NCBI GenBank assembly: GCA_013375375.1
Contig: JABXJX010000004.1
Location: 1 to 52,617 of the forward strand
Direction of reading: 5' to 3'
From: Desulfobacterales bacterium
Lineage (GTDB): Bacteria > Desulfobacterota > Desulfobacteria > Desulfobacterales > C00003060
Length of the DNA stretch: 52,617 nucleotides
The notes under the pieces were generated by a model. It was given only the letters and a program-made list of their open reading frames with translations. It ran no database searches and was not told the origin of the DNA. The position numbers were made by a program, and so were the translations under genes. Positions 4,402 through 48,408 of this stretch are shown piece after piece. Position 1 is the first letter of the stretch. Every line of letters starts with the position of its first letter.

Positions 4402-4461
4402 AGGGTCACATCTTAAAAATTAAGTTTAGCCTTCAACCTTTAACATTTAAGATGTGACCCT
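4402..4461. repeat. REP-like hairpin, 16-bp perfect inverted repeat
   Basis: AGGGTCACATCTTAAA ... TTTAAGATGTGACCCT; the left arm recurs at about 38825. Confidence 0.85.
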
Positions 4462-4480
4462 GCGTGCTCCTCTAGACAGA

Positions 4481-4641
4481 TGTCTGCGTATGTCCGCGTG
4501 ATTCTGCGGTAAAGAGAATAAAAGAAAATCCTGATGATCCTGTTAATCCTGTCGAATGAAAATAGCCGCTTAATGCATCAAAGACCTGTTTTTGGAATCT
4601 TTATCGTGGTATATCAAAGGTGGGGCTTGGTCCGATCCTGA
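4481..4641 (+). repeat. Intergenic repeat family A, copy 3
   Basis: Near-identical to 1253-1390, including gggcttggtcc. Confidence 0.85.
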
Positions 4642-4661
4642 AAATCCGGAGGAACAAATAA

Positions 4662-5351
4662 ATGGCAAAACAGAAGCAGCTAGTTCTTCAACATCTTGAA
4701 GATATATCCTGGAAGGTTTTGGAAGAGTATCCAGGGGTCGTCAAAGAGATGATCCGTAAAAAATCGGGTGTCTATGCCCTATATCGTAGGAACAAATTGT
4801 ACTATGTGGGCCTTGCTAGCAATCTTATGGGGCGGTTAAAAACCCATCTTAAAGATAGGCACCATGGCTCCTGGGAAAGATTCAGCGTATATCTGACAGT
4901 CCGTAATGAGCATATGAAAGAACTTGAATCTTTACTCTTGCGTATCGTTAATCCAAGCGGCAACAAACAAACCGGAAAATTTGCTAAGTCAGAAAACCTC
5001 CGTTCAACTCTCAATCAGAAAATCAAGGAGAACGATGCTGATCGGAGAGCATTGCTCATAGGTGGCCATGTTGCCCGTCGACGCCGTAGGTCTAAGATAA
5101 AGAAAGGGGAGGGGATCAAATCGCTTGCGGGAATAGTGGATCGTAGAATAAGCCTGAAAAGAGTGTATAAGGGTAAGGTATTCAAGGCATCTCTTCGAAA
5201 AGATGGTACCATCAGTTTTAAGGGAAAGGTTTATGAGTCTCCAACTGGAGCTGCCAGGAAAGTAGTCGGTCGGACTTGCAATGGTTGGAGTTTCTGGCGT
5301 TACAAGGACAAAAAAGGAGAATGGGTTCCTTTAAAAAATCTAAGAAAATAG
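4662..5351 (+). CDS. GIY-YIG nuclease fused to a C-terminal RAMA domain
   Basis: SGVYALY...YYVGLA.NL..RL..H...E.LE..NP.GN; C-terminal DGTI...YESPTGAA......NGWSFWRY. Confidence 0.8.
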   Translation: MAKQKQLVLQHLEDISWKVLEEYPGVVKEMIRKKSGVYALYRRNKLYYVGLASNLMGRLKTHLKDRHHGSWERFSVYLTVRNEHMKELESLLLRIVNPSGNKQTGKFAKSENLRSTLNQKIKENDADRRALLIGGHVARRRRRSKIKKGEGIKSLAGIVDRRISLKRVYKGKVFKASLRKDGTISFKGKVYESPTGAARKVVGRTCNGWSFWRYKDKKGEWVPLKNLRK

Positions 5352-5428
5352 TTTTACAAGGAGGGACAGAGGGGAGCATTCTATAGTCCCCCTGGTTCGG
5401 GTCGACGGTCGATTGAACGGAGATACTT

Positions 5429-7597
5429 ATGGCGAGGAAAAAGAAACCAAATTTGAAAAAAGAAACAAGTAATGGAGCCAATCTGGGTTTTGAAAGCCAG
5501 CTCTGGGCCGCGGCAGACAAGCTGCGTGGCCATATGGACGCTTCCGAGTATAAGCATGTTGTGCTCGGACTAATTTTTCTGAAGTACATTTCCGACGCCT
5601 TTCAGGCAAAATATCAGGAGTTGGAAGCGACGAAGGAGGCCGATTATACCGACCCTGAAGACCGCGATGAATATGCGGCTGCCAACATTTTCTGGGTACC
5701 CAAAGAGGCCCGCTGGGAGAAACTCCTTGCAGGGGCCAAGCAGCCGACCATTGGCAAACTCATTGATGACGCCATGGTCGCTATTGAAAAAGAGAACCCA
5801 AGCCTTAAAGGTGTTTTGCCCAAGGATTATGCCCGCCCATCTCTAGATAAACACCGTCTCGGGGAGCTTCTCGATATTATTGGAAAGATCGGCCTTGGTG
5901 ATAAGGCGGCCCAATCAAAGGACATCCTCGGCCGGGTATACGAGTATTTTCTTGGCCGTTTTGCCGCGGCTGAAGGCAAAGGCGGGGGTGAGTTCTATAC
6001 GCCCCAGTGTGTGGTGAAACTCCTGGTTAGAATGATCGAACCCTATAAGGGTAGAGTTTATGACCCTTGTTGCGGTTCTGGGGGTATGTTTGTTCAAAGC
6101 AGGCGGTTTGCTGAGGAACATAACGGAAAGCTCGGAGATATCTCTATCTACGGTCAGGAATCCAACCCTACAACATGGAAGCTGGCCATGATGAACATGG
6201 CTATACGAGGTATTGACGCCAATCTGGGCGGCCGGCATGCGGACAGCTTCCATAACGATCTGCACAAAGACCTCAGAACTGACTTCATTCTCGCAAATCC
6301 GCCCTTCAATATGAGCGACTGGGGTGGTAAACGTCTGCGCGAAGACGTCCGATGGAAGTACGGAATCCCTCCCATTTCGAATGCCAATTTCGCTTGGGTA
6401 CAACACTTCGCCTACCATCTGGCACCGAACGGATTTGCTGGGTTCGTTCTTGCTCAGGCCTCCCTTTCATCTGAGTCCCAAATAGAAAATGAGATCAGGC
6501 GCAGCATTGTAGAGGATGATTTGGTTGATTGCATTGTAACGTTGCCAGGGAAGCTCTTCTATACGACCCCCATACCCGTATGCCTATGGTTTCTCGCAAG
6601 GAAGAAGAACCACGCCAAGTTCAGAAACCGGTCAAAAGAAATCCTTTTCATTGATGCAAGTGCTCTAGGGATGCCAGAGTCCCGCACACATAGCTATTTA
6701 AGCGATAGCGATATCGAGCGAATTGCAGAGGCATACCATCAGTGGCGTTCAAAAGATGGACAGTATGAGGATCATAATGGGTTTTGCCGTTCCGTTCACA
6801 CCGATGATGTACGCAACGGCGGCTACAGTCTGTTTCCTGCGAAATATGTCGGAGTGGTTCACGTAGACGACGCCATTTCTTCCAGAGAGTTCTCGAAAAA
6901 CCTTCTTCAGAAATGGGATGAATATCTACGGTGCCGCGAAAAGCAGCATAGTGTCGCCCGACAGGTTGACAGTGCCATGCACGTTGCAGTCAGGAAACAA
7001 CGGATCATACGCCCTTCGAAATACATCAATATCAAACTCGATGACATTCTGGAACGGTCAGACGAAAGGCTAGGAAGTCGTCCAGAACCAGAGATACTTA
7101 CTTGCACAGAACGAGCTGGTCTCATTTTCCAGAAAGAGCGTTTTGCTAAACGTGTCGCTACGAAGAACACTAGTAAGTACAAAGTGGTGCGTAAAACTGA
7201 CATTGTCTACAATCCCTACTTACTTTGGGCAGGAGCCATTGACCAATGTTGGATTGTCGACATAGGTATTACATCACCAGCGTACGAAGTATTGCGTGTG
7301 AGAGATGGTTTCAATGCCACCCTCGTAGGCGCTCTGATTAAGAGTCCAAGAATGATCAAGACCTACAACGGCATTTCTGTCGGGACAGTACAGAGGAGAA
7401 GAAGATCACCTGTCGAAAGGTTCCTAGATCTGGACGTAGTAATTCCATCGCTTAATGACCAGAAACGTTTCAGTGAATTGAGCACCGCTATACAGAACGA
7501 GAGGCTTTTGCTCAGGGAAACTGCTCAGTGCATAGATGTGGTTCTTCTGGACCTGTGCAAATTTTGGCTCCTGTACAATGGAATACAGGAAGCGTAA
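5429..7597 (+). CDS. hsdM: Type I R-M N6-adenine methyltransferase fused to a single HsdS-type target recognition domain
   Basis: [26 protein letters not shown] and NPPF motifs; C-terminal KLDDIL...[13 protein letters not shown]...GITSPAYEV...[13 protein letters not shown]. Confidence 0.9.
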
Positions 7598-7627
7598 GCC
7601 GAGTGTCTCGCAACAAAGGTGAGGAGC

Positions 7628-10600
7628 ATGATTGATGGTTCTGTCAATGAGTCGGCTTTAGAACGAACCACTCTCGACTGGTTTTGGGGCATGGGTTGGC
7701 AAACAGCTTTTGGACCGGACATAAGCCCTGATGGTCTAGCCTGTGAACGCGAGAATTACGACCAAGTCTTGTTCGTTGGACGACTTTTTACTGCTCTTGA
7801 AAACATCAACCCGAACATCCCCGCAGATGCCATTGATGAAGCCGTTCGCAAGATCACGCGCACCGAATCTCCCAGCCTGATTGAGAACAACAGACGCTTT
7901 CATCTCATGCTCACCGATGGCGTGGATGTTTCCTACATGCAAGACGGCCGCGAGGTACACGATAAGGTCTGGCTGCTGGACCTTGACGACTTGGAAAACA
8001 ACGATTGGCTTGTTGTCAACCAGTTTACCGTCATTGAAGATCGCAGGAACCGCAGGCCGGACATTGTGGTGTTTGTCAATGGCCTTCCCCTGGCGGTTAT
8101 TGAACTCAAAAACCCGGCAGATGAAAAGGCGACCATTCGCCAGGCATACAACCAGTTTCAAACTTACAAGAAAGATATCCCAGCACTATTTGGCTTCAAC
8201 GAAGTGTTGGTCATTTCAGACGGCCTTGAGGCCCGGATGGGGACGCTTACAAGTGGCTGGGACCGTTTCATGCCCTGGCGGACTATTGAAGGTAAAGAGG
8301 TTGCGCCAAAGGGCTCTGTCGAGCTCGAAGTTCTCTTGAAGGGTGTCTTTGAGAAGCGGCGTTTTCTTGATCTAATCATGAATTTTGTAGTCTTTGAGGA
8401 CGATGGGGCGACTATCATGAAAAAGGCGGCGGCATATCACCAGTTTCATGCTGTTAACAGAGCAGTGGACTGCACTCTGTCAGCCTGCGGTATTGAGGCA
8501 CAACCCAACCAATTATATGCACGCTTTCCTGCCATGGATGAACAGAACCCCTTTGAGGTGAAAGAACCCTTTGCACTGTATGGTCAAAACACGGATCATT
8601 TCGGTGGGCGGCGTATCGGGGTGATCTGGCATACCCAGGGGAGCGGAAAGAGCCTCTTGATGGCGTTCTTTGCAGGGAAGGTGATCCGCCATCCGGCCAT
8701 GGAAAACCCCACTCTGCTGATGATCACTGACAGAAACGATCTGGACGACCAGCTTTTCGGCACTTTTTCCGGCTGCAAGGACCTCTTGCGCCAGACCCCT
8801 GTGCAGGCTGAAAGCAGGCCACACCTGCGGGAACTCCTGAAGGTCCCTGCCGGTGGCGTGGTGTTTACCACCATTCAGAAATTCATGCCGGATGCTAAAG
8901 GCGACCAGTACCCGGAGTTGTCGCCGCGGCGGAACATTGTGGTCATTGCCGACGAAGCCCACCGGAGCCAATATGATTTTATTGACGGTTTTGCCCGTCA
9001 CATGCACGACGCGCTGCCGAAAGCATCCTTCATTGGATTTACAGCCACGCCTATAGAAAGTACGGACAGAAGCACCCCCGCCGTATTCGGGGATTATATC
9101 GACAAGTATGATATTCTCCAGGGTGTTGAGGACAGGGCCACGGTCCGGATCTATTATGAAGGGCGACTGGCAAAAATTGAGCTGCGCGAACAGGAAAGGC
9201 CGAAGATCGATCCGGAGTTTGAAGAAATTACCGAGGGGGAGGAAGAATCCGAAAAGCAGCGCTTGCGCACCAAGTGGGCCGCACTTGAGGCGATGGTGGG
9301 CACAGAGAAGCGAATCGGCCTTGTTGCCAACGACCTGGTAAATCACTTTGAGAGTCGGCTGGCCGTGATGGATGGAAAGGCGATGATCGTGTGCATGAGT
9401 CGCCGCATTTGCGTGGACATGTACAATGCTATTGTTAAGCTTCGTCCGGATTGGCATGCCGACGATGATGACAAGGGGATGGTAAAGATCGTTATGTCCG
9501 GCGCGGCATCCGACAAAGTGGACTGGCAGCTCCATATCCGTAACAAAGCGCGCAGGGAATCCCTGGCAAAGCGGTTTAAAGACTCCCAGACCCCTTTCAA
9601 ACTGGTGATTGTCCGTGATATGTGGCTCACCGGGTTTGACTGCCCGTCGCTTCATACCATGTATGTGGATAAGCCAATGCGAGGTCACGGCCTGATGCAG
9701 GCGATTGCGAGAGTCAATCGTGTTTTCAAGGACAAACCCGGCGGCTTGGTGGTGGATTACCTGGGGCTTGCCGACCAGCTCAAACGTGCACTGGCGGACT
9801 ACACTGAGGCAGGCGGCAGGGGTAAGGCGACGGTCGACCAGGAAGAGGCTGTAGCTGTTATGACGGAAAAATACGAAATCGTCGTCTCCATGTTCCATGG
9901 GTTTGACTATGCTGTGTTTCTTCATGCTGAACCGTCGCAGCGCATAGCGGGCATTGCCGCTGCCATGGAGCATATCTTGACCCTGGAAGACGGGAAAAAG
10001 AGATATCTTGAAGCTGTAACGGCCTTGTCAAAGGCTTTTGCTTTGGCTGTGCCACGTGAGGAGGCGATTAAGATTCGCGACGATATTGGTTTTTTCCAGG
10101 AAGTCCGGAGCGGCCTGGCCAAGGCAACCGTCGAGGGGGCCAGCAAGACGCCTGAAGACCTGGACACGGCGATTCGACAACTCGTGTCCCGTGCCGTGGC
10201 TCCGGATGGGGTCGTGGACATATTCGCAGTCGCAGGGCTCAAAAAGCCCGATATATCTATCCTGTCGGATGATTTCCTTCAAGAGGTCCGGCAGCTTCCG
10301 CACCGGAACCTCGCCGTTGAATTACTCCGAAAGCTCCTGAATGACGAGATCAAGGTACGATCGAAAAAGAATGTAGTTCAAGCGAAGTCTTTTGCCGAGA
10401 TGCTGGAGAAATCAATACAGAAGTATCAAAACCGGATGATTGAGGCGGCTCAAGTTATTGAGGAGTTGATCGAATTAGCCAAGGAAATGCGCGAGGCAGG
10501 AAAGCGCGGAGAAAAACTCGGTCTGACAGAGGATGAAATTGCGTTCTATGATGCATTAGGGGTCAACGACAGTGCTGTAAAGGTGTTAGGGGATAAGACG

Positions 10601-10816
10601 CTTAAGACCATCGCACACGAATTAGTGGAGGCTGTTCGCAAAAGCGTCAGTGTTGATTGGACCGTTCGAGAGAATGCGCGAGCTCAGATTCGCGTAATTG
10701 TTAAACGCATTCTGCGCAAATACGGCTATCCCCCCGATAAGCAGGAGAAAGCGACACAGACTGTTTTGGAACAGGCAGAAGTTCTTTGTCACGACTGGAT
10801 GGAAAAAGCGGCATGA
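7628..10816 (+). CDS. hsdR: Type I R-M restriction subunit
   Basis: [20 protein letters not shown] nuclease motif, [37 protein letters not shown]; aggag before ATG 7628. Confidence 0.95.
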
Positions 10817-10858: not shown

Positions 10859-11008
10859 ATGGGCGGGAGATTTGGAAAATATGGTGATGCCAAGCGAAAG
10901 TCAAAGATTCGCAAAACCCGCCTCAGGACAGCTGCCCCTTACAATGATGATTTTACCCCTGAAAATGGGCCTCTAAGGCTTCAAAACACTAGGATATTAC
11001 TAGGTTAG
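10859..11008 (+). CDS. Basic junction micro-ORF, divergent copy (MGGRFGKYGDAKRKSKIRKTRLR...)
   Basis: First 23 codons align with the copies at 18811, 24046, 29018 and 30912. Confidence 0.45.
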   Translation: MGGRFGKYGDAKRKSKIRKTRLRTAAPYNDDFTPENGPLRLQNTRILLG

Positions 11009-12156: not shown

Positions 12157-12283
12157 CATTCAACCAGGGCTCTTCGCGGCGGGTCCCCGACCGTTAAGGG
12201 ATGCTATTATGTATGAGACCACGAACAAACGCGCGGGGTAGCTCTTGTAATTGGACAAAAGGGGATAGTTGAGGTCAATCAAG

Positions 12284-12344
12284 GGGTCAAGTCTCCGTTT
12301 GACTCTTGCTGGGTTCTATCAAAGGTCAAACGGAGACTTGACCC
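12284..12344. repeat. REP-like hairpin, 20-bp perfect inverted repeat, left boundary of the CBASS module
   Basis: GGGTCAAGTCTCCGTTTGAC ... GTCAAACGGAGACTTGACCC. Confidence 0.9.
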
Positions 12345-12459
12345 TCTATTATTTTCTGCTTGACAGGAGGGACTATAGGATGTCCCCAAGTTCATCTGGA
12401 AACCGTTTACCGAGCTTTTTCGCTCTCTAAGTTTGGAGGGTTGCCTGCAGGAAGACACC

Positions 12460-15893: not shown

Positions 15894-17000
15894 ATGGGAC
15901 TTAGAGCCAGAAATAGGGAAACGAGACAGGCTGTTGGAAGTGTTTCAGTCGAGATATACGAAGCTGTACTCAATAGAATTCAAAGTACCATTGGAAAATC
16001 TGATTTTGAGGAAGGGGGCAAGCTCCTAGGGCGCTTACGAAATGACGGCAGGAATCTGTTAATTACCGTTGAAAGCTATATCGACTCAGGTCCCGGCGTG
16101 AGTCATTCGGCTACTCACCTACACCCAAATGGAGAGTATCAGGAAAGGGCATTTCGTCTTGTTGAGGCATTCGACTCGGAGATCGAGCATTTGGGTTCAT
16201 GGCACAGTCATCATTGCAACGGACTCCCAGAACTGAGTAATGGAGATATCAGTGGATATATTAGAAGTGTGAATAACCCCCAGTACAACCTTGACTATTT
16301 CGTTGTGATTTTGATCAATGGCTTGGTTCGCGGTAACCTTGAGAAACGATACTTTCTTTTTGAGCGACATAAGCTGAATGAATATATTGAACTTTCTGAA
16401 GGTCGCGATGTGAAAATCATTCACAGAACATCTCAACTTGACCCCATATTGGCTTCTGCAGAGAGCCTTTCGAACTCTCGAAGAAGGCAAGTTGGTCAGC
16501 ATTTCTCTGTTCAAAAGGAGAGGGAATTGCCACCCCAGAAATCCGTAAATCCATTAAACAAAATTCGACTGGAAGACAAGGAATGGATAATCGCCAGGTT
16601 TCCAAACGCTAAATTAAGTCGAAGCAAAGCGGACGGTTCTGTTTATTGGAATTGGTTCATATGGCGAGAACCAGGAAGGCTCCAGGTTAGTTTTAAATAC
16701 CCTACTGAGGCGACGATCCCGACTCCGGGGACGGCCTATCTTGAAATCCGTTTTCGTGACGAAATTCTTGTCTCAGAAGACATCGCACTGGACCGGAATA
16801 GATTTGGCCAAATTCAAAACCGTTTAAATTCTGCTGAGGCGAATTTGAAGATTAAATTCCAGAAGAACACGACCAAGACCGACGTTGTTAAGGGGACAAC
16901 AGGGACATTTTATCGAAAGATCGGGGTCAAACCTACACATTTGACAAGAAATAAGGGTCAAACAAGGGGTCAGACCTACACATTTGACAAAAAGGGATGA
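15894..17000 (+). CDS. JAB/MPN metallopeptidase with C-terminal E2/RWD-like domain; tail runs into repeats
   Basis: EEGGKLLG, SGPG, LGSWHSHH....ELSNGD; second domain RLEDKE.I..RFP...W...F.YP; last ~30 codons are repeat-derived. Confidence 0.8.
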   Translation: MGLRARNRETRQAVGSVSVEIYEAVLNRIQSTIGKSDFEEGGKLLGRLRNDGRNLLITVESYIDSGPGVSHSATHLHPNGEYQERAFRLVEAFDSEIEHLGSWHSHHCNGLPELSNGDISGYIRSVNNPQYNLDYFVVILINGLVRGNLEKRYFLFERHKLNEYIELSEGRDVKIIHRTSQLDPILASAESLSNSRRRQVGQHFSVQKERELPPQKSVNPLNKIRLEDKEWIIARFPNAKLSRSKADGSVYWNWFIWREPGRLQVSFKYPTEATIPTPGTAYLEIRFRDEILVSEDIALDRNRFGQIQNRLNSAEANLKIKFQKNTTKTDVVKGTTGTFYRKIGVKPTHLTRNKGQTRGQTYTFDKKG

Positions 17001-17392
17001 GGAGTTGAATTTGGGAACTCCTTTTCCAGTTTATAAGTAATCCTTTTAGGGACGGTTCGTGATGGCAAGAAGAAGGGTCTCGAAAGAGCAAAGTGCCGCG
17101 CGGAGTTCAAACGGAAGAGCACTAAAAAAAGGATCAAATCGGCCCCAACTGTGTAATTTCGGGAAAAGTTGGGGACGTTGGAAAAGTTGGGGACGTTGGT
17201 AGGTTTTGAAGGTTATCGGGGGAGTTTGAGGAGGCCCTTTAGTTTTACAGTTTCCAAGTAATCCTTTTATAGCAGGTTCATGAGGGCAAGAAGAAGGGTC
17301 TCGAAAGAGCAAGGTGCCGCGCGGGGTTCAAACAGAAGAGCGACAGAAAAGGATCAAATGTTGAAATATCATGGACGTTCCGGAGTTTTCCC
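16923..17392. repeat. Composite junction: tandem GGGGTCA ends, two family B linkers and duplicated GGGGAC ends
   Basis: ggggtca(a/g)acctacacatttgacaa at 16923 and 16966; gcaagaagaagggtctcgaaagagcaa.gtgccgcgcgg.gttcaaac.gaagag twice; ggaaaagttggggacgtt twice. Confidence 0.85.
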
Positions 17393-17411
17393 AACCGTTA
17401 GGAGAAAATAA

Positions 17412-17795
17412 ATGAATAATGAAGAAGTAAGGGGATATTTTGATCAATACTGGAAACATTCATCAGTATTAAGAAATTGGTTTGTTGCGTATGGGATAGG
17501 TGCATTGGCGCTTGCGATTTATAATAAGGGTATATTTTTTTCAAATCCAGAAGACAAAAAAGTATTTGTTAGTTTAATTGTATGGGGAATATCTTTACAG
17601 GTTCTTCTTACGTTTCTGAACAAAGTTATCCATTGGTTTGTTTATTATGGAAAAAATTTAATAGAATTCCAAACGACATGGCGCTACAAAATATCATATA
17701 AAATTTCAAAATGCTTTATTATTGACATCATTGTTGATTTCTGCACTATGATTCTTTATGCTCGGGCTTTATGGATTTTTACTAGCAATTTATAA
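17412..17795 (+). CDS. AT-rich small membrane protein
   Basis: 127 aa with about 3 hydrophobic segments; aggag RBS. Confidence 0.6.
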   Translation: MNNEEVRGYFDQYWKHSSVLRNWFVAYGIGALALAIYNKGIFFSNPEDKKVFVSLIVWGISLQVLLTFLNKVIHWFVYYGKNLIEFQTTWRYKISYKISKCFIIDIIVDFCTMILYARALWIFTSNL

Positions 17796-17799
17796 ATTA

Positions 17800-17976
17800 A
17801 CTCCTAATCGGGTTAAGGCAAAAAGTCTGTTGTGCTATTGGGCGGTAAGAGACCTTGATATTGGTACGGCTCAAATAGCAAGGCGATTGAATCTCTCATT
17901 GGCAGGGGTGAGCCAGTCGGTAAAGCGAGGAGAAACAATAGTACAACAAAAGGGCTACAATCTCATCGATCCTTAA
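17800..17976 (+). mobile_element. C-terminal HTH remnant of an IS200/Y1 REP-associated tyrosine transposase (RAYT-like)
   Basis: RVKAKSLLCYWAVRDL.....IARRLNLS..GVS.SVKRGE resembles the C-terminal HTH of deltaproteobacterial Y1 transposases; followed by an aagggcgtcccc end motif. Confidence 0.6.
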
Positions 17977-18067
17977 GCCTAAAACTGTAAATGTGGAAAT
18001 GTAAAGGGCGTCCCCAAACTTCTACGCCGTTTCGAACCAATTTAGACGTGTTGTATGACGGCCGCTC

Positions 18068-18152
18068 AAGAGAATGGGGTCAAACCTTGATCAGTGATTA
18101 ACATACCGAAGGTTTGGGCTTGATCACAAATCAAGGTTTGACCCCATCTATC
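18068..18152. repeat. 85-bp REP-like hairpin element, identical to 26041-26125
   Basis: 18-bp perfect IR ATGGGGTCAAACCTTGAT/ATCAAGGTTTGACCCCAT. Confidence 0.9.
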
Positions 18153-18760: not shown

Positions 18761-18810
18761 CTTGGGACATTAAAAACCTTGGGAACGTTGTTGACTATAA
18801 GGAAGTGTCC

Positions 18811-18972
18811 ATGGCAGGTAGATTTGGAAAATATGGTGATTTAAAGCGCAAGGAGCGCTTGCGCAAAAACCGCCTCAGGCCGCCTGGCCTTCAACAGCGG
18901 GGAAAGAACAAACCCTTAAAAGGGTCTCGAAAGAGCAAAGTGCCGCGCGGAGTTCAAACAGAAGAGTGCTAA
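18811..18972 (+). CDS. 53-aa basic junction micro-ORF (MAGRFGKYGDLKRKERLRKNRL...)
   Basis: taaggaag upstream; same-length copies at 24046 and 29018. Confidence 0.55.
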   Translation: MAGRFGKYGDLKRKERLRKNRLRPPGLQQRGKNKPLKGSRKSKVPRGVQTEEC

Positions 18973-19185
18973 AATACCCGCAACTGTGTAATATCTACAC
19001 ACTGTTCCCCTCAAATTGTAACATTTCGTTACAGTATCTCCTTGGGGCTGGCCGGCCCCTTGTAAAAACAAAAGATCACCCCCGCAAATCCTTGACAAAA
19101 CAGCACCTCGCTGATACCCAATCCCTGATATTGCCAATGATCCATTAACCCGAATTATAGGGGGTGCCATGCACTGATTCCCAAG

Positions 19186-31064: not shown

Positions 31065-31104
31065 TCATGACTATTGACAATAGAATAACTGGGAGGCAGC
31101 CAGC

Positions 31105-33411: not shown

Positions 33412-33422
33412 CATAAAGGGTT

Positions 33423-33574
33423 GATGAACTCGCAAAAAGTCGTCAATTGGACGGCACAGTAAAAAGCTCCAGATGCAAGGCGCGCTAGTCTTGAGGAATG
33501 AGGTCCGCCTCAGGCGGATCGCAATGACGAAAGATGAAGCGCAACGCCGCAGATGGACTTTTTACGAAGCCGTA
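33423..33574. mobile_element. MITE-like element with flanking direct repeats
   Basis: GATGAACTCGCAAAAAGT ... ACTTTTTACGAAGCCGT; taaagggtt at 33414 and 33573. Confidence 0.65.
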
Positions 33575-33587
33575 AAGGGTTTTAGAT

Positions 33588-34610: not shown

Positions 34611-34691
34611 CTGACAGCCAGGTGATGCTCCACGCGGTCCCGATGAATCGGGACAGGGCATGCGCGGCACGCTCCAGGCAATCAAAATTGA

Positions 34692-34832
34692 GGGTGCCTC
34701 TAAAAATTAGGATACCGGCCCGAGTTCAAGGCATGCGAAAATTTTAACCGCAGGAATACTCATAGTATTTCGAGGATTACAATTTGAGCATAACGCAGAA
34801 ATCGAGTTGATAGACAATTTTTAGAGGTGGCC
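34692..34832. mobile_element. MITE-like element with possible TTGA target duplication
   Basis: GGGTGCCTCTAAAAATT ... AATTTTTAGAGGTGGCC flanked by ttga on both sides. Confidence 0.65.
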
Positions 34833-34862
34833 TTGAGCATCGATAATGATAAGGTGCAGGAC

Positions 34863-35807
34863 ATGAACAGAAAAGACCCCCTTGTGAAGCGATATGACGG
34901 GAACCCCATCCTTACCAGGGATGACGTCCCCTACCCGGTAGCCACTGTTCACAATGCCGGGGTTATTAAACACAATGACCGGTATATAATGCTTTTCAGG
35001 TCACATCTCCACAACGGCCGCTCTGTAATCGGCCGGGCTGAAAGCGCAGACGGTTTTTCCTTTTCTGTTCATCCCGAGCCGTTCCTTGTGCCGTCACACG
35101 ATGGCAGCATATTTGCCGAATACGAAGAGTTCGGGGTGGAGGACCTCCGCATAAACCCCGTGGATGGCGAATATCTTCTTGCCTACAATGCATACTCCCG
35201 GCATGGGGTGCGCATAGCACTTGCCCGGACAAAGGACTTTAAGAACATTGAGCGAATCTCGCTAATAACCCAGGCCGACCTTCGCAACGTCGTCATTTTT
35301 CCTGTAAAGTTCGGTAGCCGGTATGCGCGTCTTGACCGGCCGCATTCCGAAATCTCACCCTGGTCTATCTGGATTTCCTATTCCCCGGACCTGGTTCACT
35401 GGGGCGATTCACGGGTGATTATGAAGCCGGTTCCCTATCACTGGGATGAAATGAAAATCGGGCCCGGCGCACCGCCCTTCAAAACCGACAAGGGCTGGCT
35501 GCATATTTACCATGGAGTCTTTAAGACTATGGCCGGGGCGGTGTATCGCCTTGGCGCGGCCCTGCACAGTCTTAATGATCCGGCAAGAATCATCGGCGTT
35601 TCCGATCACTGGATACTGCAGCCCGAAGATCCCTGGGAGGTGAGCGGCTATGTGCCCAATGTTGTTTTTACCTGCGGCGCCGTTCCTGAAGACGACGGTA
35701 CGGTAAAAATATACTGGGGCGGTGCTGATACCGTCATGTGCGCCGGCACGGCAGTGATTGATGACCTGGTGCAGTTATGTCTGACAGATACCAGGTCAGC
35801 GCTGTAA
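34863..35807 (+). CDS. GH130 glycoside hydrolase/beta-mannoside phosphorylase
   Basis: NPIL, HNAG, GVEDLRI, KIGPGAPP, GYVPNVVF, YWGGADT. Confidence 0.9.
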   Translation: MNRKDPLVKRYDGNPILTRDDVPYPVATVHNAGVIKHNDRYIMLFRSHLHNGRSVIGRAESADGFSFSVHPEPFLVPSHDGSIFAEYEEFGVEDLRINPVDGEYLLAYNAYSRHGVRIALARTKDFKNIERISLITQADLRNVVIFPVKFGSRYARLDRPHSEISPWSIWISYSPDLVHWGDSRVIMKPVPYHWDEMKIGPGAPPFKTDKGWLHIYHGVFKTMAGAVYRLGAALHSLNDPARIIGVSDHWILQPEDPWEVSGYVPNVVFTCGAVPEDDGTVKIYWGGADTVMCAGTAVIDDLVQLCLTDTRSAL

Positions 35808-35859
35808 GAAAGCAAAGGGACATTTTCAAATCAACATATTCATCAAGGAGTCATGTCTG

Positions 35860-37338
35860 ATGCCAGAAAAAATACTATCGCGTCCAAGAATCAAACGTAA
35901 AAAGACAAGAATTGAGGGGGACGCTTCACGCGTTATAACCCGCACTCATATTCCCCACGGCGCGCATCGCATACCCAAAATCATTCAACGCATAGTGGAC
36001 TTGCCTGACACGACGGCCGAAGATCTTCTTGCACAAATAATGCTTGATTTTTCCGGGCGGCACAAAGACATCAGACGAGTTTTTGAGCGTAGCCTGAATG
36101 AGGTAAGAGATCATGTTCCTCGGGATGCCGTGCTCAGCGGGACCAAAAGGGCTCTCATCGGGGCCTATTTTACGATGGAGTACTCCATTGAATCGGCTGC
36201 CCTTTTTAACCCGTCAATCGTCCTCCACCCTGATCAAAGCCATCTGGACAAAGGCAGCTTGCGCTTTATCATGAGCCTGAGGGCAATCGGCGAAGGTCAT
36301 GTTTCCTCTATTGTATTTCGCAGCGGCGTCCTTGACCGGGACAATACGTTTATCTTCGACCCGACCAGCGATTATGTCGAAAGGCCGGACGCCCGTTTAA
36401 ATCCGGTTTACGACCGGCACCTCTTCCAGCTGAAGCTCGACGAAATGGAGGCCTCCAATGGCATAACAGCTCGTATTCTTGACCAGTTACCGGAAGATTT
36501 CACCTATGATGATTTAAATGAAAAAATCCGAGCGCTTCGCGAAAGACCCATTTCCTCTGAGGCGCGCCAAAACGCAACCTTCGAAATCATGTACTGGCTT
36601 GCCAATTCCAATTATGAGATGAATTTCCGACCCGATCACAAAATATCCGAACGGGTTATCTTTCCAGTTTCGGAAAACGAAAGCAGCGGCATTGAAGACG
36701 CCCGGTTCGTGCAATTTCTTGATGACAACGGTGAGGGCACCTATTATGCGACCTATACGGCTTATAATGGTTTTACAATCCTCCCGCAGCTGATTGAAAC
36801 AAAGGATTTTATCAAATTTAAAGTTATGACGCTCAACGGCAAAGCCATACAAAACAAGGGGATGGCTCTTTTTCCTCGTAGAATTGACGGCAGCTACGTT
36901 ATGCTCTCGCGCCAGGACGGTGAAAATAGTCATATCATGTTCTCAGACAATATCCATTTCTGGCAGGAGTCAGAAATCATCCAGGAGCCAACATGGCCCT
37001 GGGAATTCATTCAGATCGGCAACTGCGGCTCACCGCTGGAAACCGATAAAGGCTGGATTGTGCTCACCCACGGTGTCGGGCCCATGCGGCAGTATTGCAT
37101 CGGCGCCATGCTGCTTGATCTTGAAAACCCGGCAAGAATCATCGCCCGCCTTGAAGAGCCGTTACTTACCCCACGCGAGGAAGAGCGCGAGGGGTATGTC
37201 CCCAATGTCGTCTATACCTGCGGCGCGATTTTCCATCATGACGACCTCGTCATCCCCTATGGCATGTCTGATATTACATGCGGCATAGCAACTGTTAAAG
37301 TAAGCGAATTGATTAACTGCATGCAAACGGTAGCTTGA
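35860..37338 (+). CDS. GH130-family protein with N-terminal extension
   Basis: EYSIESAALFNPS, GIEDARFV, NKGMALFPR, IGNCGSP, GYVPNVVY. Confidence 0.85.
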   Translation: MPEKILSRPRIKRKKTRIEGDASRVITRTHIPHGAHRIPKIIQRIVDLPDTTAEDLLAQIMLDFSGRHKDIRRVFERSLNEVRDHVPRDAVLSGTKRALIGAYFTMEYSIESAALFNPSIVLHPDQSHLDKGSLRFIMSLRAIGEGHVSSIVFRSGVLDRDNTFIFDPTSDYVERPDARLNPVYDRHLFQLKLDEMEASNGITARILDQLPEDFTYDDLNEKIRALRERPISSEARQNATFEIMYWLANSNYEMNFRPDHKISERVIFPVSENESSGIEDARFVQFLDDNGEGTYYATYTAYNGFTILPQLIETKDFIKFKVMTLNGKAIQNKGMALFPRRIDGSYVMLSRQDGENSHIMFSDNIHFWQESEIIQEPTWPWEFIQIGNCGSPLETDKGWIVLTHGVGPMRQYCIGAMLLDLENPARIIARLEEPLLTPREEEREGYVPNVVYTCGAIFHHDDLVIPYGMSDITCGIATVKVSELINCMQTVA

Positions 37339-37367
37339 TGATCTTGGGGGACTAGTCCTTTTACTAT

Positions 37368-37624
37368 GGGGGACATCTTTAGTTTTCCAGTTTCCAGGCA
37401 ATCCTTTTAGAGCCGGTTCTTGATGGCAAGAAAGTCGAAGATAGAGGCACCTGGGGAAGCCCCGTGCGGAAGCACGGGGAGGCTTCACATTCGGCATTGT
37501 AAGTATGTCGAACAAGTTTGAAGAATGACTAAAATCCATCCTTTTGGGAGGAGATTTTCTTATGGGGAAAGTTTGGGGACGCCCTTTAGTTTTACAGTTT
37601 CCAAGAGGTTTGACCCCATCTATC
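37368..37624. repeat. Composite junction (GGGGAC ends, family B linker start, TTTGACCCC end)
   Basis: ggggacatctttagttttccagtttcca..aatcctttt; ggggacgccctttagttttacagtttccaag; aggtttgaccccatctatc. Confidence 0.7.
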
Positions 37625-38622: not shown

Positions 38623-38850
38623 GGGGTCAAGTCTACGCTTGACTCTTAGTCAGGAAGGGGAGAGAGACCCGGTTCATGATGGCAAGAAAAAGGGTCCCGA
38701 AAGAGCAAAGTGCCACGCGGAGTTCAAACGGAAGAGCGATAAAAAAGGATCAAATGTTGAAGAAACAAGAGGGGTCAGACCTACACATTTGACAAAAATC
38801 AGTTTCTGTCAAGGCAAGAAGAACAGGGTCACATCTTAAATATTAACTAT
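38623..38850. repeat. Composite junction with three GGGTCA ends and a family B linker
   Basis: Ends at 38623, 38771 and 38825; linker gcaagaaaagggtcccgaaagagcaaagtgcc. Confidence 0.8.
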
Positions 38851-40084: not shown

Positions 40085-40726
40085 ATGATAGCATGGTCCG
40101 ACCCTAAAAGAATGACAAACCCTAATATCGCATGGTTTCGGTTTTACGAAGAATTAAATGATTTTCTTCCGGCTGATAAAAGAAAAATTGCATTCCCTTA
40201 TAAATTTTCCGGCAGTCCATCAGTAAAGGATGTTATTGAAGCAATCGGCGTGCCGCACACAGAAGTTGATCTCATCCTGATCAACGGCAATTCAGTGAAA
40301 TTTGACCATAAACTTTCTCATGGCGATCATATCTCGGTTTACCCTGTTTTTGAAAACCTGGACATATCTCATGTCACCCGGCTGAGGCCAAAACCCCTGC
40401 GCAAAACCCGTTTTATAGTGGATGTGCATCTCGGCAGGCTGGCACAACTGCTTCGTATGCTCGGTTTTGATACTCTTTACAAAAACAATTACAAAAATGA
40501 AGAGATTATTACAGAAGCGCTTACGCAAAAACGAATTATCCTGACGCGTGACCCTGGTCTTTTGAAAAACAGGTCCATAACACACGGCTATCTGATAAGG
40601 GGAACAGATCCCCATGAACAGGCTCGTGAAGTGATCTGCCGGTTTGATCTGTATTCACAGGCAAAACCGTTTATTCGATGCAACTCGAGACAAAATAAAG
40701 GGGTCAAGTCTACGTTTGACTCTTAG
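40085..40726 (+). pseudogene. Mut7-C ubiquitin/PIN RNase protein, truncated within the zinc ribbon
   Basis: FRFYEELNDFL, SVKDVIEAIGVPHTEVD, DVHLGRLA.LLRMLGFD, ILTRD; ends PFIRCN then repeat-encoded KGVKSTFDS*. Confidence 0.8.
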
Positions 40727-40770
40727 TGGTAAACTGGGGGAGTGGTAAACTGGGGGTCAAATCTTTAAAC
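40700..40770. repeat. Two GGGGTCA ends with a 16-bp tandem duplication
   Basis: agtggtaaactggggg at 40725-40740 and 40741-40756. Confidence 0.8.
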
Positions 40771-40792
40771 GTTAGAATTTGAAAGGAATCAA

Positions 40793-41968
40793 ATGATGGA
40801 ACAGATAAGGGCACTTAACGTAGCCATTGTGGGTGGTGGTCCTGGGTGTAAGGCGATCATGGATATGATATTTGCCGAAAAACTCAGCCAGCTTCAAATG
40901 AAGCTCATTGGCGTCGCGTGTACCAATCCTGAGGCTGTGGGCTACCGTTACGCCCAGGAAAAGGGAATTTTTACAACAAAAGATTACCGTGACCTGTACA
41001 AGCTAAAAGATCTTGATATGATTATCGAGCTGACGGGTCGTGAACAGATAGCCAATGAGATCTTTGAAACCATACCACACCACGTCCGAGTGATGGACCA
41101 CGTTACTGCCCGTCTGTTCTGGGATATCTTTCAGATTCAGGAAGAAAGAATTGACGAGCGCAAACGGACCGAGGGGGAGTTGAGGAGACACCGCGACCAT
41201 TTGGACGAGTTAGTCAAGGAGCGGACTGCCGAACTAATAACAGCCAACGAACAACTTCAACGGGAAATCATTGAGCGCAAGCAGCAGGAGGAGCAGGTTA
41301 AGCAGAAAACGGAATTCCTGAATTTAGTCTTGGAATCCTTACCCCATCCCTTTTGTGTTATTGATGCCTCTGATTACACAATCAGGGTAGCGAATTCTGC
41401 TGCTTATATGGGGCGTTTATCAAAAAACATAACCTGTCATGCCTTTTTACACAAGAGCACAAGATCATGTGGAACGGAAGGACATCCCTGTCCACTTGAA
41501 ATAGTAAAGCAGACCAAACAACCTGTGACGGTAGAACATCTCCACTATGATAAAGATGGAGATCTCAGAAATGTTGAAATTCATGCATACCCAATATACG
41601 ACAGCGAGGGAAATGTCTCCCAAATGATTGAATCCTCGTTGGACATCACCCAACGCAAGCGGGCGGAGGAGGAAAGAGAAAAACTTATTGAAGAACTTCA
41701 AAATGCACTTGCCAAAGTCAAAATATTGAGTGGCTTGCTGCCTATTTGCAGTTCCTGCAAAAAAATACGTGATGACAAAGGCTATTGGAATCAGATAGAG
41801 GCTTATATTAGGGACCATTCTGACGCTGAATTTAGTCACAGTATTTGCCCTGAATGTGCGAAAAAACTTTATCCCCAACTTTACGAAACGGAAAGAATGA
41901 TGGGACAGGATCAAAGAAGCGGGCTTGACCGGAGAAGCGGTAAAGAGCGAAGAACCGCTGGTTCATGA
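40793..41968 (+). CDS. Rossmann-like/coiled-coil/PAS sensory protein with C-terminal Cys-rich domain
   Basis: VAIVGGG, PAS (C......CP...DITQRK), LLPICSSCKKIRD...SHSICPEC. Confidence 0.75.
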   Translation: MMEQIRALNVAIVGGGPGCKAIMDMIFAEKLSQLQMKLIGVACTNPEAVGYRYAQEKGIFTTKDYRDLYKLKDLDMIIELTGREQIANEIFETIPHHVRVMDHVTARLFWDIFQIQEERIDERKRTEGELRRHRDHLDELVKERTAELITANEQLQREIIERKQQEEQVKQKTEFLNLVLESLPHPFCVIDASDYTIRVANSAAYMGRLSKNITCHAFLHKSTRSCGTEGHPCPLEIVKQTKQPVTVEHLHYDKDGDLRNVEIHAYPIYDSEGNVSQMIESSLDITQRKRAEEEREKLIEELQNALAKVKILSGLLPICSSCKKIRDDKGYWNQIEAYIRDHSDAEFSHSICPECAKKLYPQLYETERMMGQDQRSGLDRRSGKERRTAGS

Positions 41969-42421: not shown

Positions 42422-42444
42422 CTTACTGCCCCGCTTTTTTCGGT

Positions 42445-45976: not shown

Positions 45977-45977
45977 T

Positions 45978-46307: not shown

Positions 46308-46848
46308 CGGATATATCGCCCCCTGCCGACCCCTAAACAATTTCAAATTTCTCGGATAACCAACTCTTGTAATCCGTTTAACGACAAAACCTTTTGCCAA
46401 AACAGTATAAATAATGATAAAATGTAGCACGTTTCATGCCAGCTCGTTTCTGAGGCAGAATTCCAAAAAATAATGGTCTGTTATGGGATATCGTGAGAAT
46501 TGTAGGTGGGTTATGAAACAGAGGTTTTTTAAAGCGATTACCCTGGGTGTCAGAAATCTGACGGTAATTTTCAAACGGCCCAGGGTTTTTGGGGAGCAGG
46601 GAAAAAAATGGGGACATCCTTTAGTTTTCCAGTTTCCAAGCAATCCTCTTAGAGCAGGTTCATGATGGCAAGAAGAAGGGTTTCGAAAGAGCAAAGTGCC
46701 AGAGGGTGTTCTTATGAGTTGTGTAGTACGTAATGTTGCAAAGCTATGTTTGGCAGGATGTATGGGGTTTTTCATAGGCTTCGGTAGTTTCGGATATGCA
46801 TCAGAAAAGGGTTCCCATTATACAGACGCAAAAAAAGGAGAGGTAACA

Positions 46849-47322
46849 ATGACCCTGACAATCACATCCCCGGTATTCTCACACAACGGAAAGATTCCCA
46901 TGCGTTATACCTGTGACGGTGAGGATGTTTCACCTGCCCTGGAGTGGTCTGGCCTACCCGAAGGAACTAAGAGTGTTGTTCTGATTGTAGACGATCCCGA
47001 TGCTCCTGACCCTGCCGCACCTAAAATGACGTGGGTGCACTGGGTACTTTATAATATCTCTCCCGGTGCCCCTGGGTTGTCGGAAGGTGTGAGATCGAAG
47101 GATCTTCCCGAGGGAACTAAAGAAGGGCTCAACGACTGGAAACGGACTGGATACGGCGGACCCTGTCCGCCAATCGGCCGTCATCGTTACTTTCACAAGC
47201 TCTATGCCCTGGATGTTGTTCTTCCAGATCTGGGTAAGCCGACCAAAGGAGAGCTTGAAAAGGCAATGGAGGGACATATTCTCTTGAAAGCAGAATTAGT
47301 CGGAACTTACCAGCGCTCTTGA
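46849..47322 (+). CDS. YbhB/YbcL (PEBP, Raf kinase inhibitor-like) protein
   Basis: YTCDG.DVSP.L.W, DPDAP, WVHWV, YGGPCPP.G.HRY; may start earlier with a signal peptide. Confidence 0.9.
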   Translation: MTLTITSPVFSHNGKIPMRYTCDGEDVSPALEWSGLPEGTKSVVLIVDDPDAPDPAAPKMTWVHWVLYNISPGAPGLSEGVRSKDLPEGTKEGLNDWKRTGYGGPCPPIGRHRYFHKLYALDVVLPDLGKPTKGELEKAMEGHILLKAELVGTYQRS

Positions 47323-47408
47323 TAAGCCCATGGATGTCACGGAGTTTCCGCCCGAACGACCCGGCCGGGATAGATAGATAATAAAGAAAGGAATTTCAGG
47401 AGGTAATT

Positions 47409-48338
47409 ATGGAAAAGGATTTTCATTTCTATGTAACCTATGCCTTGGCGAACAAGGCGGGGTTCAGCAACGACGATTCATATATTATTGCCTATTCCTC
47501 TCAGTACGTAGACGACAATAACGAAAGTCAATATCCCAGGAAAGACGGTCCACCTCAATTTCCATTCGGCATAAAGGTTGACGGCGGATTCTTCCGCCCC
47601 ATTATGACGCAGTCCATGTCCGTGAAATCTCTGGTGTATGAGATTCAAAAGTTTGTTTATGTCCCATTTCATTTCCTGCCTGGCGACAATAATCAGCCAA
47701 TTAACGGAGGCTATAACAAGTACGCCACAACCCCTGACTCCCAAAACGCCCGGAAACTTCTGAAAACTGCATTCGCCACCCGCGATCTTTACAGGATTGG
47801 AATTGCCGTCCACACATTCGCCGACACATGGTCGCATCAGAATTTTACAGGGTATGAGGAAGACTGGAACTCGGTTTTCCACTGGCGCAATCCGTTTCGA
47901 GCTTTAACTCCGAATATCGGCCACGCTGATGTTGGTCACTTGCCGGATGAAATATCCGCGACCTGGAATGATTACCGCCTCGACAAGCCGCATCGGAAGA
48001 GAAACAATCATAAAACAGCGCTTCAGGCCTGCAAGCGCATTTTTCAGGAATTGAGAACCGCACGAAAAGGCGATACTTACTGGACGTATGTAGAAAAGGA
48101 CTTCAGGAGAATAATCAATTCTGAAGATTACGACGACAGAGTCAATAAGGTTAAAGAAGTTCTGGACAAACCGGACCTCAGCTACAAAAGAGATCTGTGG
48201 GTTGATGAGGCCGTCAAAGACCGAGAAGGAGAAGCTTTAGAGGCCTCTGCAAACTTTGAAAACACCCACTGGCATAAATTTCAGTTAGCTGCCAGAGCCC
48301 ACCTGGCGATGGTTATGGATATGTTAAAGGGCTATTGA
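47409..48338 (+). CDS. DUF6765-like putative zinc-dependent hydrolase
   Basis: MEKDFH.Y.TY.LA, SQYVDD, PFHFLPG, GIAVHTFADTWSHQNF, IGHA. Confidence 0.65.
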   Translation: MEKDFHFYVTYALANKAGFSNDDSYIIAYSSQYVDDNNESQYPRKDGPPQFPFGIKVDGGFFRPIMTQSMSVKSLVYEIQKFVYVPFHFLPGDNNQPINGGYNKYATTPDSQNARKLLKTAFATRDLYRIGIAVHTFADTWSHQNFTGYEEDWNSVFHWRNPFRALTPNIGHADVGHLPDEISATWNDYRLDKPHRKRNNHKTALQACKRIFQELRTARKGDTYWTYVEKDFRRIINSEDYDDRVNKVKEVLDKPDLSYKRDLWVDEAVKDREGEALEASANFENTHWHKFQLAARAHLAMVMDMLKGY

Positions 48339-48348
48339 ATGAAACAAG

Positions 48349-48408
48349 GGTGTCAGACCTGCACATTTAACAAAAATCAGTTTCTGTCAAAAGTGTAGGT
48401 TTGACACC
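48349..48408. repeat. REP-like hairpin, rightmost junction
   Basis: GGTGTCAGACCTGCAC ... GTGTAGGTTTGACACC; loop matches the 38771 copy. Confidence 0.8.

Follow-up and report, generated by a model that had tools for sequence, protein, structure and literature searches.

Blocks of defence and accessory genes in a stretch of DNA from a Desulfobacterales bacterium are separated by short hairpin-like motifs, and the question raised by this locus is whether the motifs assembled the gene array or settled in it. The stretch, hereafter the window, has 52,617 nt and is the entire contig C131 of a genome bin of 2.18 Mb (197 contigs, 87% complete), of which it represents 2.4% in length. In a sequence-only reading, the motifs had been taken for target hairpins of an HUH/Y1 transposase that act as recombination joints, building an integron-like array without an integrase. 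Judged by sequence, the repeats are the dispersed ends of TIRtrons, a known class of element with its TIRYT transposase, and not of a new class. The hairpins are probably TIRtron-derived repeats, similar to miniature inverted-repeat transposable elements (MITEs), which accumulate in permissive accessory DNA.

The motif GGGGTCARRYCT is present 14 times in the window against 0.01 expected, a number reached by none of 100 shuffles, and 51 times in the full 2.18 Mb genome. All 18 positions previously assigned to a GG(G/T)GTCA-type end carry the motif or its reverse complement, those at 19261 and 37606 in the TGACCCC form. Clustering of heads plus 24 nt genome-wide (Hamming distance up to 4, at least three copies) yielded ten families, and 13 of the 18 sites belong to them; the family 3-like head at 20238 has an inverted partner at 20356, the site at 27822 aligns with family 3 in a self-comparison of the window, and those at 19261, 37606 and 41994 consist of a bare head of 8-12 nt. 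The second proposed type, GGGAC/GTCCC, held in part: six of its 11 sites are true terminal-repeat heads (12376, 17170, 18005, 37370, 37575 and 46610). The sites at 17372, 24234 and 29205 are instead the conserved tail CATGGAYGTY of a longer repeat, 47330 has the same tail motif, partly conserved beside the PEBP gene in a relative, and 2011 is a short unrepeated palindrome. The related motif GGGGACRYCY is found eight times in the window, twice inside genes, against 0.63 expected.

Seven of the ten families (1, 2, 3, 5, 6, 8 and 9) are represented in the window by 24 copies. Genome-wide these seven have 76 copies, of which 46 are single and 30 are paired at distances of up to 260 nt. The palindromic doublets fold as single-stranded DNA (ssDNA) with z-scores of -3.7 to -10.2 relative to shuffles, and those at 4402, 12283, 18074, 26047 and 48349 are strong hairpins; other copies form clusters at 16923-17212, 37369-37617 and 38623-38848. 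The families are almost purely intergenic, with 12-25 of 14-27 copies per family outside genes in a genome with a coding fraction of 87%, according to a greedy map of open reading frames (ORFs). It is also true that no motif lies past 49 kb, yet the core sequence there is just 3.5 kb long, so that this absence carries little weight. Chance matches or an assembly artefact could be suspected from the three sites with a head of only 8-12 nt and from the fragmentation of the bin into 197 contigs. This possibility is effectively refuted by the shuffles, by the recurrence of the same families around intact genes, both on further contigs of the bin and in different species, and by an independent assembly of the one metagenome run in which the stretch is present (labelled marine sediment metagenome and stored as contigs), whose contigs span the window with 0 differences.

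An intact RAYT-like transposase (a RAYT is a tyrosine transposase associated with REPs, which are repetitive extragenic palindromes) had been proposed as something to look for elsewhere in the genome, and six genes of this kind were found, encoding proteins of 320-337 aa. A whole-genome Pfam search gave six PF01797 (Y1_Tnp) matches above cut-off (E 2.6e-14 to 2.6e-12), none of them within the window, and tblastn of the six proteins against the window gave nothing significant. The C115 protein, on which the domain scan was run, has a Bac_DnaA_C domain (E 2e-12, residues 237-300) in addition to Y1_Tnp; the other five were aligned or compared. The HUH triplet H64-Y65-H66 and Y123, which we take to be the catalytic tyrosine, are invariant in all four aligned transposases. 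All six genes are bracketed by an inverted pair of a single repeat family, the 3' copy of which encodes the last codons and the stop. As repeat families of both kinds bracket transposase genes, both motif types are transposase ends, and the earlier view of the hairpins as ends recognised by HUH/Y1 transposases is probably correct. The collection of genome contigs searched contained 568 relatives of these proteins, the closest in metagenome-assembled genomes of Desulfobacterales and Desulfobacteraceae. Of the 66 relatives' loci with both flanks, 50 have an inverted repeat that is exact over 11 nt or longer, and 39 of these 50 contain GGTCA or GTGTCA (counted by eye).

These features match TIRtrons, defined by Di Nocera et al. 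(2013, BMC Genomics 14:522; PMC3733652), the available text of which describes terminal inverted repeats headed GGGGWSAS whose copies occur as singles, dimers and clusters. A TIRYT is longer than a RAYT and has a C-terminal helix-turn-helix (HTH) of the Bac_DnaA_C, HTH_23 or HTH_28 type, which serves as class criterion. In the available text of Quentin et al. (2018; PMC6006769), 20 of 26 TIRYTs fall in TnpA_REP subclass 2.1, with Bac_DnaA_C/HTH tails, and a literature search for the combination of Y1_Tnp with Bac_DnaA_C returned only that paper and its preprint. The head GGGGTCAG fits GGGGWSAS; GGGGTCAA, GGTGTCAC and GGGGACGT each differ by one or two bases.

The window itself contains a transposase remnant, as the sequence-only reading had suspected, at 17806-18020. 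This segment is 90-96% identical to multi-copy sequences in the same genome (C99, 90%; C138, 94%; C141) and in the relatives G008 (90-96%) and G012 (89%). Alignment indicates a deletion-derivative MITE of about 270 nt, in which the 5' repeat is followed by the start region, this region is joined directly to the last ~55 codons, and the 3' repeat closes the element; the window copy is a 5'-truncated form of it. A profile of the six TIRYTs matches the longer copy G008:C61 with an E value of 3.4e-5 (profile positions 231-300) and the window's own frame, in the same register, with an E value of only 4.1, so that the homology of the remnant rests on the chain through the G008:C61 copy and on the terminal repeat.

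Two longer companion repeats fill the module junctions. Repeat F, with six full or partial copies, has a family 5 or family 2 head and extends to ATGATGGCAAGAAG; repeat G has five copies. They have a core in common and both end in CATGGAYGTY, the reverse complement of which, read by eye, is similar to a GGGGACRTCC head in degenerate form. That F and G might fold in the manner of attC sites was considered and rejected (z -0.95 to +1.41), so they are not hairpins. The left part of F was also considered as a mobile promoter, and the scan found no sigma-70 site in it; promoters of this phylum may differ. Most copies of G compared across species keep open a small ORF for a basic protein of 53 aa. 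Five copies of this lysine/arginine-rich ORF of about 50 aa (MxGRFGKYGDxKRK...) are located at 10859-11008, 18811-18972, 24046-24207, 29018-29179 and 30912-31064, and the G ORF is also found in the relatives G008 and G010. It belongs to no Pfam family, and among 5.8 billion proteins it has only 16 close relatives, all unnamed or annotated as hypothetical.

According to these data, the motifs would be dispersed copies, in single, doublet or clustered form, of the inverted repeats at the ends of several TIRtron families. A TIRtron is a RAYT-like Y1/HUH transposase gene with a C-terminal DnaA-like HTH bracketed by inverted repeats headed GGGG(T/A)CA. Intact TIRYT genes number at least six in the genome and have one repeat family apiece; internally deleted MITE-like derivatives are present too, and the transposases presumably mobilise the short ends in trans, as suggested by their family. 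The window would be a mosaic of horizontally acquired modules (restriction-modification, CBASS, AAA-type ATPases, toxin-antitoxin, Fic, Mut7-C, glycosyltransferase/GH130 and PEBP), with the repeats and their non-hairpin companions F and G piling up in its junctions, which are long and under weak constraint. Their position between modules reflects the lack of room among genes inside an operon. The repeats mark the junctions, and nothing in our tests suggests that the junctions were made by them. Incidentally, copies that are 60-480 nt long and 85-100% identical offer a substrate for homologous recombination.

Four tests failed to support the idea that the hairpins are recombination joints of an integron-like array. 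The junctions contain a mixture of at least seven repeat families, instead of one att-like site. Singlets are oriented 17 versus 16 outside the window and 10 versus 3 inside it; a strand rule relating singlets to local GC skew and gene direction was rejected (16-17 versus 17-16 outside the window), so that no replication-linked bias exists. Outside the window, copies and TIRtrons adjoin genes for UvrB, MscS, YceG, an ArsA-like ATPase, an ABC ATPase, a sigma-54 regulator, an AMP-ligase and a beta-CASP nuclease. Finally, homologues of six modules were compared at 17 loci (SPL, 2; MNT/HepT, 3; glycosyltransferase/GH130, 4; PEBP, 3; AAA_14/DUF4143, 4; PP-loop, 1) in genomes of the same genus, which are 70-88% identical in shared genes, and BLAST found no window repeat at their borders, bare heads below ~25 nt being too short to be detected. 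The matches obtained elsewhere were one of 81 nt about 900 nt from the SPL module in G010:C23 and two of 28-35 nt to the hairpin 37455-37491, in loci fetched for the left-flank gene (1-1229). At nine borders inspected by eye, homology stops within ~10-45 nt of the ends of ORFs or operons, and the relatives' flanks are mutually different and repeat-free; in G008:C146, GGGTCA-type heads lie 130-270 nt upstream of the glycosyltransferase operon. The repeat-free borders indicate that the repeats do not travel with the modules. Comparison with relatives had been suggested as a way to find breakpoints at the hairpins; the breakpoints of synteny turned out to lack the motifs, while the motifs themselves are not evenly spread but about 14-fold enriched in the window.

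The genome has five PF00589 (tyrosine recombinase) matches, none on the window contig, and none was found among the ~50 window ORFs scanned; Rfam and tRNA scans of the window gave no match. Beside comEA in seven relatives, where between a few hundred and 6,600 nt of sequence could be inspected, junction repeats are absent and the neighbours differ each time; the relatives' contigs mostly end at this site. In the contigs of the one run holding the window, no credible joined or excised form was found; the joints listed connect repeat-bearing positions, their shorter side measuring 23-56 nt, and they are taken as other repeat loci, not excision products, and as neutral evidence. A literature search, with supplements outside its reach, found no paper in which the assembly of defence islands is connected with REP, RAYT or TIRYT repeats.

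Nevertheless, a number of observations weigh against passive accumulation, which can yield enrichment, flanking and block-end features but does not predict them. The window has 24 of the 76 copies of its seven families, that is, 2.51 versus 0.18 per kb of intergenic DNA or the ~14-fold enrichment above, a value that must be read bearing in mind that the families were partly defined from window copies, that, among the 52 copies outside, 11 are no farther than 300 nt from the end of a contig and that another family, family 0, has no copy in the window. Copies at contig ends imply that repeat-rich DNA is under-assembled and that 3-27 copies per family is an undercount in this 87%-complete bin. 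Such crowding is opposite to the pattern of Pseudomonas, where recently acquired DNA forms 'REP deserts' in the available text of PMC3390384. Moreover, among 21 toxin-antitoxin/accessory loci elsewhere in the genome, 7 have a copy at a distance of 2 kb or less, as opposed to 5% of random places; the loci were counted as independent occurrences of PIN, ParE, PhdYeFM, NTP_transf_2, DUF4143 or AAA_21, the numbers are small and there is no independence among kin loci. A mixture of F, G and terminal repeats likewise separates small cargo modules in G000:C138:3200-5700 (G000 being this genome) and lies between cargo such as a TIR-domain protein and a Panacea-type antitoxin, co-oriented with the genes, in G008:C294:1-12.3 kb. 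Three of the four ends of two high-identity blocks abut an F or G copy within 20 nt: the glycosyltransferase/GH130 block 31059-37348 (92-95% to G008, G006 and G009) starts 20 nt past a truncated G, with 5-20 nt left between its other end and an F, and the PEBP block 46702-47338 (95% to G008) starts at the end of a truncated F and stops inside the tail motif. Direct repeats also flank several modules. The segment 26041-26125 is 100% identical to 18068-18152, which makes an 85-nt direct repeat around the 7.9-kb segment 18153-26040; a repeat of ~480 nt (28741-29224 versus 30660-31039, 89-97%) flanks a single AAA_14/DUF4143 gene; and the units 1253-2013 and 4482-5374 have flanks alike at 96-99% (~140 nt on the left, 1253-1392 versus 4482-4643, and 98 nt on the right, 1916-2013 versus 5277-5374) around different cargo. 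Finally, in the unit 17223-18020, transposon-type 5' and 3' ends surround an unrelated ORF of 127 aa. The block ends, the direct repeats and this last unit fit insertion and decay of MITE-like elements plus ordinary homologous recombination, and are compatible with an active role as well.

An active role would mean that TIRYTs cut and rejoin ssDNA at the repeat heads, with repeat-bounded cargo moving as cassettes into an integron-like array without an integrase. Such a process would account for the enrichment at module junctions, the association of toxin-antitoxin loci elsewhere with copies, the similar arrays in C138 and G008:C294, the foreign ORF held between two element ends and the position of the PEBP gene, between an F left part headed GGGGACATCC and an inverted tail motif inside which the identity to G008 stops. 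However, the inverted match around PEBP amounts to only ~9-10 nt, most junction copies are singlets with no same-family inverted partner across the cargo, and the seven or more families are mixed, often three side by side. Together with the lack of a strand rule genome-wide, the repeat-free borders at 17 loci in relatives and the copies and intact TIRtrons beside housekeeping genes, this makes active joints unlikely. We consider equally doubtful a wider version in which TIRtron or derivative ends (singlets, doublets, F left part, inverted tail and G) constitute a shared junction kit of defence/toxin-antitoxin islands, with cargo inside or between transposon-end units and moved by TIRYT cleavage of ssDNA ends or by recombination between units; if true, it would be a Y1-transposase-based counterpart of the integron.

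The direct repeats could also point to portable homology, by which, with repeats that did not arise for this purpose, RecA-dependent recombination between F, G, D6 (a flank repeat described below) and doublet copies duplicates, deletes or swaps modules, including Campbell-type insertion of circles with one copy. The identical doublets, the ~480-nt pair and the twin units with different cargo speak in favour of it, and the toxin-antitoxin cargo 1399-1895 matches relatives over its own length only. Many repeats, on the other hand, are shorter than 40 nt or less than 85% alike and thus poor substrates, and recombinant forms did not come to light: the one run's joints are contig cross-links of the sort expected from other repeat copies. 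This explanation has a rather low probability. Roles as terminators, stabilisers of mRNA 3' ends or insulators have been proposed for classical REPs, and the hairpins might be kept between modules for a similar RNA or DNA function, since stable ones lie downstream of co-oriented operons and 10 of the 13 window singlets are oriented like the genes. This orientation is lost outside the window, singlets unable to fold outnumber doublets (46 versus 30), no T-run follows the hairpins and no terminator-like site was found at the hairpins scanned, the nearest being a weak 7-bp stem at 37355; a retained function of this kind is very improbable. The accumulation of TIRtron-derived repeats in permissive DNA continues to be the likely explanation.

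The window is a mosaic of modules, mapped by Pfam scans of about 50 ORFs and listed with the repeats in Table 1.

Table 1. Repeats and gene modules along the window, and transposase genes elsewhere in the genome (module assignments by Pfam; ssDNA fold scores as z)
Position	Feature	Strand	Details
6-1229	CBS-PAS-HisKA protein
1337-1881	MNT/HepT-like toxin-antitoxin pair
2065-4043	Two-gene module		Includes SPL-like radical-SAM protein
4402-4461	Family 9 inverted doublet (AGGGTCACATCTTAAA...)		22-nt arms, 91%; z -6.46
4662	GIY-YIG/RAMA protein
5429-10816	Type I restriction-modification		HsdM and HsdR
12283-12345	Family 2 inverted doublet (GGGGTCAAGTCTnCnnTTGACTCT)		25-nt arms, 92%; z -10.17; cognate gene G000:C115:8617-9609
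12364-12387	Family 8 head (GGGGACATCCTATAGTCCCTCC), single	-	3 copies in genome
12433-17000	CBASS-like operon		SMODS, patatin, ThiF-type E1, weak JAB
16923-16989	Family 3 (GGGGTCARACCTACACATTTGACA), two tandem singles	+	Overlap last codons of ORF 15894-17000
17004-17139	Composite repeat F copy	+	No hairpin fold; F copies z +0.2 to +1.4
17172-17212	Family 6 (GGGGACGTTGG...), two tandem heads	+	Second matches the repeat flanking transposase gene G000:C64:3298-4263
17213-17395	Repeat F, full copy	+	Degenerate family 5 head, ~60 nt to ATGAGGGCAAGAAG, core common with repeat G, tail CATGGACGTTCCGGAG
17806-18020	Transposase remnant	+	Last ~55 codons of C-terminal HTH and 3' terminal repeat (family 5, head at 18015, minus strand)
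18074-18147	Family 1 inverted doublet (GGGGTCAAACCTTGAT...)		z -8.59; cognate gene G000:C144:23775-24740
18782-19017	Repeat G copy	+	Conserved 53-aa basic small ORF 18811-18972
20238-20356	Family 3-like heads		Loose inverted pair
21553, 24297, 29352	AAA-type ATPases, several
24003-24256	Repeat G copy	+	Small ORF 24046-24207; ends in tail CATGGATGTCCCGGAC
26047-26120	Second family 1 inverted doublet		Within 26041-26125
27628-27745	Family 2 single head joined to partial F-like segment	+
27822-27845	Family 3-like single	+	Head without GG
28989-29224	Repeat G copy	+	With 69-aa zinc-ribbon gene 28741-28985 forms ~480-nt unit, repeated at 30660-31039
30892-31039	Repeat G, truncated	+	End 20 nt ahead of block 31059-37348
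31105-37338	Glycosyltransferase/GH130 operon
37369-37617	Cluster		37369-37490, F copy (family 5-like head); 37575-37605, another family 5 head; 37606-37617, family 1 head (minus strand)
	Modules after glycosyltransferase/GH130 operon		PP-loop ATPase, Fic, Ub-Mut7C, PAS protein, two-component cluster (minus strand), then PEBP, DUF6765
38623-38848	Three-family cluster	+	Family 2 head and F core 38623-38760; family 3 38771-38794; family 9 38825-38848
40700-40776	Family 2 single (40700) and family 1-like single (40753)	+
46609-46711	Repeat F left part, family 5-like head	+	Core truncated exactly where PEBP 95% identity to G008 begins (46702)
47329-47350	Tail motif CATGGATGTCACGGAGTTTCC, 3' of PEBP gene	+	~19/22 like tail at 17370 (by eye)
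48349-48408	Family 3 inverted doublet		Last repeat before conserved genes; z -3.65
from about 48.7 kb	Conserved genes		P-II-like, ComEA, aspartate kinase and more
C115	Transposase gene		Family 2 repeat, at least 24 nt identical on both sides; 3' copy covers last codons and stop
C144:23775	Transposase gene		Family 1
C144:26100	Transposase gene		GGTGTCAC variant of family 1
C185	Transposase gene		CTTTACTATTAACT subfamily
C64:5483	Transposase gene		Family 3 variant
C64:3298	Transposase gene		Family 6, GGGGAC type

Some observations on the modules deserve mention. HsdM (722 aa) has ~240 C-terminal residues free of Pfam assignment, and the scan recognised no separate HsdS ORF beside HsdM/HsdR. The CBASS-like operon had zero nucleotide matches among the 20 relatives searched, and the 3' end of its last ORF runs into two family 3 copies. 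The first ~130 codons (40782-41180) of the PAS protein (391 aa) are part of a large paralogue family, with dozens of members at 71-84% nucleotide identity in all genus genomes searched and at least four others in this genome. The AAA_14/DUF4143 gene has its own promoter-like TTGACT...TATAAT at 29316-29344 (by eye). The conserved genes at 49.7-52.6 kb are only 72-83% identical to other species, as opposed to 95% for PEBP and 92-95% for the glycosyltransferase/GH130 block, and the higher identity of these two suggests recent exchange between species.

Regarding the twin units, the cargo is the MNT/HepT pair in 1253-2013 and GIY-YIG/RAMA in 4482-5374. Their left flank is the repeat D6, also found at 4069-4177 and on C187 and C97, and the right flank (99%) corresponds to the 3' end of the RAMA gene. 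Other repeats are of a different kind. At 33418-33594 there is a MITE-like repeat of ~155 nt with at least 22 genome copies at 85-100% identity and many more in relatives of the genus and order; the orthologous position in G008:C146, between the two glycosyltransferase genes, lacks it, which indicates an insertion polymorphism. A repeat of ~80 nt at 34721-34802 has six other genome copies at 80-86%, and the 240-nt stretch containing it is replaced by 36 nt in G008:C146. Right after the last doublet, an intergenic stretch of 72 nt (48420-48491) is 96% identical to G008:C312:3475-3546. Family 0 (GGGGTCATGATGTCTTTTCT) has 36 copies on 21 contigs, all intergenic and mostly in inverted pairs ~90 or 185 nt apart (for example G000:C96:9390-9573 and C144:18135-18320), and its cognate transposase gene was not found in this 87%-complete bin.

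If the repeats were found to move or swap cargo, they would represent a new route for the shuffling of defence genes. An integron-like mechanism is unsupported, and active cassette shuffling has only a slim chance of being correct. There is a resemblance to integrons and to clusters of attC sites lacking an integrase (CALIN), in that co-oriented accessory and defence genes are separated by short structured repeats. Unlike integrons, however, the contig has no IntI and at least seven site families, the modules occur in relatives unaccompanied by the repeats, and many of the would-be cassettes are multi-gene operons, at least one with the promoter-like sequence mentioned above. In place of the bulged hairpins of attC (R''-L''...L'-R'), the doublets are near-perfect palindromes headed GGGGTCA (by eye), and F and G are unfolded.

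REP/REPIN-RAYT systems, reportedly described by Nunvar in 2010, Bertels and Rainey in 2011 and Ton-Hoang in 2012, are closer. As in these systems, the short repeats are non-autonomous and spread in intergenic DNA, and inverted doublets flank a single Y1 transposase gene. The differences lie in the heads, which are GGGGTCA or GGGGAC with no GTAG/CGTC tag; in the unit, since a REP is itself a palindrome of 20-40 nt and here only family 2 has a small internal hairpin (GTCAAG...CTTGAC); in the copy number, 3-27 per family (an undercount) versus hundreds; and in the protein, which is about twice as long as a RAYT and has an HTH tail. Acquired DNA is repeat-rich here, unlike the 'REP desert' that the available text of PMC3390384 describes for Pseudomonas. 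The IS200/IS605 family uses Y1 chemistry on single-stranded ends, has deletion derivatives mobilised in trans and occasionally carries cargo between its ends. The present elements have in common with it the Y1 transposase family, the deletion derivatives and the occasional cargo, which is suggested at two loci only; they differ in having inverted-repeat ends, not asymmetric left and right hairpins, and in lacking tnpB.

TIRtrons are the best match. As in these elements, the gene for a Y1/HUH transposase (~320 aa, with an HTH tail of the Bac_DnaA_C type) is located between terminal inverted repeats, of which the 3' one covers the end of the gene; copies are present as singles, dimers and clusters, and each of several paralogues per genome has its own repeat family. 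The heads are at or near GGGGWSAS. Compared with the strict consensus, most heads here end in A (GGGGTCAA) or read GGGGACGT. Unlike the described TIRtrons, six intact paralogues plus deletion-derivative MITEs coexist in a ~2.2 Mb Desulfobacterales-like bin, with copies ~14-fold concentrated in a defence/accessory contig. This concentration in defence/toxin-antitoxin DNA is unusual, and no link to defence islands or cargo is reported in the available text of the TIRtron papers (PMC3733652, PMC6006769). The repeats thus provide a clear multi-family example of a little-studied class in a sediment Desulfobacterales-like genome, and, as each transposase is paired by sequence with its own repeat family, their specificity is directly testable. 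Since their crowding in defence/toxin-antitoxin DNA is the reverse of the classical REP-poor acquired DNA, these repeats could mark variable islands in this lineage.

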